From Callorhinchus milii (lineage: Eukaryota), in assembly GCF_018977255.1 (NCBI RefSeq), contig NW_024704742.1:20276001-20340000 (forward strand): DNA of 64,000 bases. Direction: 5' to 3'. Both the position numbers and the translations under genes were made by a program. Each line of letters opens with the position of its first letter. Position 1 is the stretch's first letter. The notes beneath the pieces are model-generated. The model did no database searches and was not told where the DNA came from. It saw only the letters and a program-made list of their open reading frames with translations. Below, piece by piece: positions 2,879 to 3,398 of this stretch.

Positions 2879-2986
2879 CTGCAGTGTTGGTGAGTTTTTC
2901 TCGGTATCGCCCCAACTGAGAACCCAAACCTGGTCATGTGATTTGTCGTAGTGAAGTTTCACTGGAATTGGATCAGTGGCTACAAA
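2879..2986 (-). CDS. FSTL5: FSTL5 exon, 108 nt: [36 protein letters not shown]
   Basis: Acceptor ctccctccattacag|TTT, donor CAG|gtaaat; phase 0 to 0; [14 protein letters not shown] motif of FSTL4/5. Confidence 0.94.
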
Positions 2987-3398
2987 CTGTAATGGAGGGA
3001 GAAGTTAATTAGATCACTGATTACAGCCTGCAATAGAGAGAAATGAATCGTATCACTGGTTACGGTCTGCAATGGAGAGAATAATTGATTAGATCAGTGG
3101 TAAGAGCCTGTAATGGAGAGTGTAAGCAAAATTAAATCAATAGTTACAGCCTGTAATAGAGAAAGTAATTCATTAGATCAATGGTTATGGACTATAATGA
3201 ATAGAGAAATGAATGACATCACTGTAATGGGGAAAGTAATTGGTTAGATCAGTGATCACAGACTGTAATGAAGAGAATAAACAATTAAATCAGTGGTCAC
3301 AGACTGTAATAGAGAAATAAATCAATTAGATAAGTGGTTACAACCTGCAATGGAATAAGTAATTGACTAATTTGTGATTACAGACTGTAATGGAGAGA
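2968..3398. repeat. Degenerate ~41-bp minisatellite (11 units, one partial) overlapping the acceptor of exon 2879-2986
   Basis: Approximate consensus ATTAGATCAGTGGTTACAGACTGTAATGGAGARAGTAATTG; the first unit is the exon/intron junction itself. Confidence 0.9.

Follow-up and report, generated by a model that had tools for sequence, protein, structure and literature searches.

A degenerate tandem array of splice-acceptor modules at an FSTL5 exon of Callorhinchus milii, probably an old relic of junction duplication

Introduction

Minisatellites that span a splice junction have been described for several human genes, among them the 37-bp VNTR in intron 7 of F7 and the arrays of IFI6 (6-16), CBS intron 13, LMNB2 and PDGF, all of which repeat the donor site, and the resulting pseudo-donors are either silent or active only close to the exon, as far as the available parts of the source go (PMC1557585). 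Besides these donor-side arrays, CBS 844ins68 is a single duplicated acceptor junction of which the downstream site is favoured (PMC2630376, PMC1802585); in the accessible portions of the two sources its sites are named donors in PMC2630376 and 3' splice sites in PMC1802585. A literature search, beyond which most subscription journals lay, found no paper on the array described here or on any acceptor-side minisatellite.

Here, we describe a tandem array that repeats the acceptor of an FSTL5 exon in the elephant shark Callorhinchus milii. The window analysed is a stretch of 64,000 nt (assembly GCF_018977255.1, contig NW_024704742.1, positions 20,276,001 to 20,340,000). It had been interpreted before from its letters alone, and this sequence-only reading had proposed an expandable set of decoy 3' splice sites, built from an FSTL5 exon junction, that might tune FSTL5 output through nonsense-mediated decay (NMD).

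The FSTL5 locus and its array

The gene in the window is FSTL5 on the minus strand, according to matches to elephant-shark FSTL5 proteins, and eight of its exons were mapped, spanning 49965 to 261. Exon 9530-9679 is 100% identical to two C. milii FSTL5 proteins (28 matches in total), in agreement with the identity proposed before. The exon of interest, a coding exon of 108 nt in phase 0, lies at 2879-2986 (minus strand, like the other exons, the acceptors and the array) and is covered by contig X9, which joins it to both adjacent exons. These are the upstream exon at 9530-9679 with its donor at 9529, known from protein match and from X9, and the downstream exon at 262-386, found in the loose ends of contigs X6 and X9. 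The authentic acceptor is the CAG at 2987-2989, as seen from X9, whose loose end is the end of exon 9530-9679, and from the proteins P0001, P0030 and P0041.

At this acceptor TRF finds a degenerate tandem array with a period of 41 bp and 10.8 copies (2967-3398, score 224), where the sequence-only reading had placed it. Each unit spans the junction, as had been recognised, and in it about 20 nt from the end of the intron are joined to 21 nt from the start of the exon, instead of the ~22 and ~19 nt suggested earlier. The first 21 nt of exon 2879-2986 are thus the last, partial unit of the array. The ten full or near-full units measure 41, 39, 41, 43, 41, 30, 41, 41, 41 and 40 nt, a 14-nt partial unit follows at the 5' end, and all of them align in register with the first 21 nt of the exon. 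No further copy of the 41-bp unit was found in the window by short-word blast, and none of the 13 other TRF rows in the window overlaps the eight mapped FSTL5 exons.

A YAG stands in register at all 11 acceptor positions, one real and ten decoys. The decoy AGs are at 3028-29, 3067-68, 3108-09, 3151-52, 3192-93, 3222-23, 3263-64, 3304-05, 3345-46 and 3385-86 (the YAGs falling within 3028-3387). Exon 2879-2986 and the proposed decoy exon starts at 3027, 3066, 3107, 3150, 3191, 3221, 3262, 3303, 3344 and 3384 are confirmed. Their offsets of 41-398 nt had also been given correctly: nine shift the frame, and the tenth, +276, meets a TAA at 3185-3187. Use of any decoy would lead to a premature stop, 101-488 nt upstream of the exon 3' end and with further junctions downstream (10/10 decoys). 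That all ten listed decoys are unproductive therefore holds, and three off-register AGs within the array (3016, 3055 and 3366), which had been missed, are unproductive as well. However, for a 41-nt unit in AT-rich sequence such an outcome at every decoy is what one would expect by default.

At 11 nt (2994-3004), the polypyrimidine run of the real acceptor is the longest among the 11 modules. By simple counts, the pyrimidine tracts of the decoys comprise 10-14 of 16 positions, on a par with the 11-13 at the seven other acceptors of the gene. G runs are absent from the units. Most units contain a GTRA at columns 4-7 (for example 3021-3024), three bases past each AG, in which the G is missing at -1 and +5; judged by eye, these words do not appear to be credible donors.

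Just 5' of the array, at 3424-3484, a short repeat of the dispersed kind contains a palindrome of 18 nt (3455-3472), and many unrelated contigs of C. milii and of two other organisms, B and C, align to it; the repeat may be the relic of a mobile element that disturbed the 5' edge of the array. Further upstream, a lineage-specific insertion or replacement at 3718-3778 gives organism C 627 different letters where C. milii has 59. The same intron also holds a 63-bp direct duplication with 94% identity (6943-7005 and 7214-7276), with an imperfect inverted repeat behind it at about 7286-7336.

Origin from the exon junction

The exon start equals the unit consensus at 18/21 positions, and the peptide of exon 2879-2986 is conserved in 41 of the 42 vertebrate FSTL5 proteins listed (one truncated). 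Together these two observations support a copying direction from exon to array, so that the array was copied from the intron/exon junction and not the reverse; in this point the sequence-only reading is upheld. The units share two states that differ from the exon, an A at column 7 (9/9 units with a letter there) and a T at column 17 (9/10), the latter turning the CCAAT of the exon into the CTAAT of the units. This suggests that the array grew from, or was homogenised to, a junction copy that was already altered.

Pairwise identity of the units is flat, with 0.68-0.72 at lags 1-9, a range of 55-80% and a mean of about 71%, and the units lie star-like at 17% from their consensus (70/410 cells differ). 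Both the flat identity and the distance from the consensus fit one old burst followed by independent decay.

Exon positions 31-41 (2946-2956), which lie downstream of the real acceptor by exactly the 41 nt of one period, match the acceptor end of the unit at 7/11 positions, and all four differences are transitions; exon positions 22-30 are absent from the unit (0/9). The similarity at 2946-2956 is possibly a microhomology that seeded the first slip. The first residue of the exon (2984-2986) is F in the three C. milii models that use the acceptor at 2986, and V, I, T, A or M in the other listed proteins. The commonest first base of the units is T, which likewise starts the F codon of the exon, so that conversion from the array may have taken place.

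Acceptor use and candidate branch points

Contig X9, 257 nt long with a depth of 6.6, comes from a run that was guessed to be RNA. It matches 2877-2989 and joins exon 9530-9679 to 2986 as well as 2879 to 386, which means that the real acceptor is used. It is the only RNA-like contig that crosses the acceptor, and as contigs drop rare isoforms it reflects the main form. Contig X6 contains the downstream junction only; it covers just the 3' end of the exon and is thus uninformative on the acceptor. Neither a decoy junction nor a contig covering the array was found in the two RNA-like contig sets, of which only that of X9 covers the acceptor: both lack contigs in the array beyond three ambiguous junction bases, an absence that proves nothing for X6, and in such contigs rare forms drop out and NMD would hide the products of decoys. 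In six runs of presumed RNA the share of sampled words is 0.17-0.19, close to the ~0.15 expected from the exon alone; two of the six serve as evidence here.

The protein models agree with X9. Three of the four C. milii models (P0001 and the RefSeq isoforms P0030 and P0041) use 2986, and the fourth, P0002, has a shifted junction without any array sequence, which looks like a gene-model artefact; none of the four uses a decoy acceptor. In run X6 the summed contig depth exceeds 1100 over 2877-2906, restricted to the 3' end of the exon. Second contigs of organisms B and C match the exon part 2905-2962 with 7-8 differences and probably represent the paralogue FSTL4.

Since array now takes up what lies beyond about position -20 relative to the real AG, the nearest unit is the likely source of a branch point, and the real acceptor probably takes it from there, as CTAAT at -23 or TTAAY at -19. 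The CTAAT at 3008-3012, with its A at 3009, lies in the exon-derived part of this unit, and the exon has a C where 9/10 units have the T; among the B and C substitutions listed there is no change at 3008-3012. The second candidate is TTAAC at 3004-3008 with its A at -19, a motif that is TTAAT in both B and C. The adenine at -23 had been located correctly before, although a strict CTRAY at -23 stands before only 5/11 AGs. Whether the CTAAT serves as the branch point is in our view an even call. The earlier idea that the repeat took over the splicing signal is thus plausible for the nearest unit only, as a putative branch point.

The array in other individuals and species

All 58 sampled words of the array are contained in 4/4 top runs of the same species, all from one study, which shows the presence of the reference form, beside which other alleles may exist. 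Organisms B and C carry the array collinearly, with about 90% identity and about one unit more. They are probably chimaeras of other families, because three other organisms have the same word share of 0.10, Callorhinchus comprises only three species according to the accessible part of the source (PMC11521621), and the neighbouring intron differs by ~10%.

At least 14 substitutions have occurred in the array, and among those listed eight fall in this lineage, five in B/C and one in both; none of the 14 changes an AG, which is uninformative as 0.7 were expected. The units of 39, 43 and 40 nt are 41 nt long in B and C, with indels at 3037, 3128 and 3369. The offsets of the decoys are hence lineage-specific and their frame pattern is not kept. 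The 30-nt unit at 3192-3221 corresponds in B to a stretch of about 86 nt bounded by the equivalent AGs (3221 to 3191; arithmetic from contig ends), which gives B one extra unit, whose acceptor, judged by eye from a loose end of 30 letters, appears to read AA instead of AG. Going by the same contig ends, the short unit is probably the scar of a ~52-nt deletion by which this lineage lost an entire module. Two extra units in B/C, as an 82-letter back-step joint would have it, were rejected, as the contig ends of B total about 56 extra nt.

The comparison shows that the array predates the split between this species (A) and B, and that with about one unit changed since then its copy number is nearly frozen. 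An expandable array, as had been suggested, does not agree with this, nor with the star-like units at 68-72% identity and the complete set of words in the same-species runs. If B belongs to another family, the A/B split would date to about 187 Ma, the age given for the family-level split of chimaeras (PMC12952989, in part); the parts of a further source that were available give a chimaera crown age of 173 Ma by morphological tip-dating and a holocephalan origin at 401 Ma (PMC11521621). A clock-like age of the array was rejected: the depth of the units is 2.8-5.5 times half the A-B distance, and with 187 Ma this exceeds the holocephalan origin at 401 Ma. Therefore, the age of the array is given as older than the A/B split and not in absolute terms.

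The array as a probable relic of junction duplication

It is quite probable that the array is the relic of an old duplication, that it is no control switch, and that it has no function apart from its nearest unit. A 41-nt piece over the intron/exon boundary would have undergone tandem duplication and amplification, which apparently took place in a single old burst and started from a copy already changed at two positions relative to the exon. Afterwards, the array would have decayed copy by copy and its turnover stopped, and the comparison with B and C points to later point mutations, small indels and the loss of one unit. The spliceosome picks the last AG, at least in the main RNA form. This AG presumably wins since it alone has the whole exon after it and is nearest to the donor of the exon, whereas the decoys carry only 21 nt of exon; the grounds for inferring this preference are exon definition and the examples of CBS 844ins68 and F7. 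Competition in cis between duplicated 3' splice sites was reportedly described by Reed and Maniatis in 1986. The decoys would then be mostly silent, with rare slips removed by NMD as a by-product, and as the duplication replaced the sequence beyond about -20, the branch point would come from the nearest unit.

On this account, the locus provides a natural experiment in the choice of 3' splice sites: ten acceptors that resemble the real ones of the gene lie within 400 nt of the exon, and the main RNA form nevertheless uses only the authentic, last AG. Furthermore, it mirrors the donor-side model of F7, and it would illustrate a route from exon sequence to intron, and perhaps to a branch point.

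Possible weak selection on the acceptor modules

A second explanation attributes the persistence of the acceptor ends to weak selection on the units, for U2AF loading near the exon, for delayed intron removal or as back-up acceptors, with little decoy-spliced mRNA being formed. We hold this to be unlikely, and the column tests are mixed. None of the 22 AG cells is changed (p=0.016 under uniform rates), and YAG is kept in 10/10 decoys where neutral decay predicts about six. The probability of the latter is p=0.0065 in 20,000 simulations with an empirical substitution matrix, whose G rate is based on 19 cells, and AG retention in the ten decoys gives p=0.014-0.024 by simpler models, so that the support for selection lies at p 0.007-0.024. 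However, one module is lost in this lineage and one AG apparently lost in organism B, and with this AG counted the retention gives p=0.06-0.10. Further against a reading specific to splicing, 11/41 columns are invariant compared with 6.4 expected (p=0.04), and about half of these columns (5, 7, 10, 14 and 15, plus the A at -7) are unrelated to acceptor signals, so that splicing does not explain them; four of 41 adjacent pairs are invariant as well.

In favour of selection, the last seven unit columns have 4/77 changes (p=0.002); they were chosen after the fact, and their variable positions are -4 and a C to T at -3. Position -4 is the free position of the acceptor consensus. CTAAT is changed at 9/49 cells, the average rate (mean 0.17), and yTnAy at -23 is retained in 7/10 units compared with 6.4 expected; hence the conservation test proposed in the sequence-only reading fails for CTAAT and gives a marginal result for AG. 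New AGs are not significantly avoided (3 compared with 5.2 expected), and in the exclusion zone between branch point and AG there are none where 2.0 are expected (p=0.13). Mutations in the tracts show no significant bias toward pyrimidines (16:4 compared with 16:11, p=0.21), which also speaks against selection.

Retention of the array in three species favours weak selection. Moreover, organism B differs from the reference at 15/224 positions in the proximal array at 2971-3194 (6.7%), significantly fewer than the 62/498 at 3221-3718 (12.4%; p=0.019, Fisher), and this argues against a mere relic. Compared with the downstream intron, where 21-25/246 positions differ (8.5-10.2%), the array yields p=0.19 (Fisher, using 25), so that its excess of conservation over the neighbouring intron seems modest at most. 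Apart from that, a back-up acceptor would yield a truncated protein only. Overall, the columns suggest a weak and mixed signal of selection on the decoys, with AG retention mildly above neutral.

In its furthest form, selection would have kept at least ten acceptor modules splice-competent in chimaeras for far more than 100 million years, with the modules loading U2AF or diverting part of the FSTL5 transcripts and the exon-derived copy acting as branch point. This is doubtful; if true, it would represent a splicing control element built wholly by junction duplication. If the AG columns are under selection across chimaeras, the case would show that junction duplications are retained in the role of splicing elements on very long time scales.

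Decoy acceptors and FSTL5 output

A third explanation, and the one proposed by the sequence-only reading, is that the decoys are regulated, in that acceptor choice sends FSTL5 mRNA to NMD and the copy number sets the output. The early stops of all ten decoys would serve this purpose, the decoys look like usable acceptors by their pyrimidine tracts, and the donor-side arrays of human IFI6 and CBS use their nearest pseudo-sites, according to the part of the source available (PMC1557585). Nevertheless, we consider such regulation quite improbable. The two RNA-like runs contain no decoy junction or array contig, with only X9 covering the acceptor, and the single contig across the junction uses the real AG, which leaves tuning through NMD without positive support in contigs that drop rare isoforms. 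Copy number is nearly frozen, and the offsets differ between species through the three indels. Regulated AS-NMD sites and decoy exons are conserved across species well above the neighbouring intron, and for the array no clear excess of conservation over the downstream intron is seen.

Chance similarity is hardly credible as an account of the array, and so are an unrelated minisatellite in the intron and an artefact of assembly: unit columns 22-27 match neither flank, but these accounts are refuted by the match to the conserved exon start, by the words found in all four same-species runs and by the orthologous arrays in two other species, and the window holds no other copy of the unit.

Comparison with known systems

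A relic of junction duplication can be set beside several described systems, each considered here as far as the accessible part of its source allows. Like the F7-type arrays (PMC1557585), the FSTL5 array has an end unit that spans the exon/intron boundary, repeats a splice site into the intron and leaves the exon-proximal site as the one normally used. However, F7 repeats the donor, whereas the FSTL5 array repeats the acceptor with its tract and a branch-point-like motif; the F7 pseudo-sites are identical in sequence, whereas the FSTL5 units are 55-80% alike with about 71% on average; and the F7 copy number varies among people, whereas the FSTL5 array is nearly frozen across species. Therefore, it is not F7-type as defined, as it repeats the acceptor and its copies are not identical. 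In the F7 type, moreover, mutation of the authentic site activates the next pseudo-site.

With decoy exons that control intron retention (PMC6097662) the array shares intronic splice-site-like sequences that would be NMD-sensitive if spliced. In contrast, decoy exons possess donor sites of their own and were detected in NMD-inhibited cells, whereas the FSTL5 units are without a credible donor, GTRA lacking the G at -1 or +5. One property by which AS-NMD is recognised, a premature stop upstream of later junctions, is found for 10/10 decoys. Another is an alternative junction that becomes more frequent under NMD block; the two RNA-like contig sets, one of which covers the acceptor, contain no decoy junction. 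Intron gain by tandem genomic duplication (PMC3443670) is similar in that a duplicated gene sequence is absorbed into an intron with the protein unchanged; it differs in that an exonic AGGT is duplicated and a new intron arises, whereas the FSTL5 duplication lengthens an existing one.

On the acceptor side, CBS 844ins68 (PMC2630376, PMC1802585) is likewise a tandem copy of intron end plus exon start, whose downstream 3' splice site is favoured and gives normal mRNA. In the parts of these sources available, it is a human polymorphism with one extra copy, in which G runs between the sites steer the choice, whereas FSTL5 has ten diverged copies in units without G runs. The best reading of the FSTL5 array is thus that of an acceptor-side counterpart of the human junction minisatellites such as F7 and of CBS 844ins68.
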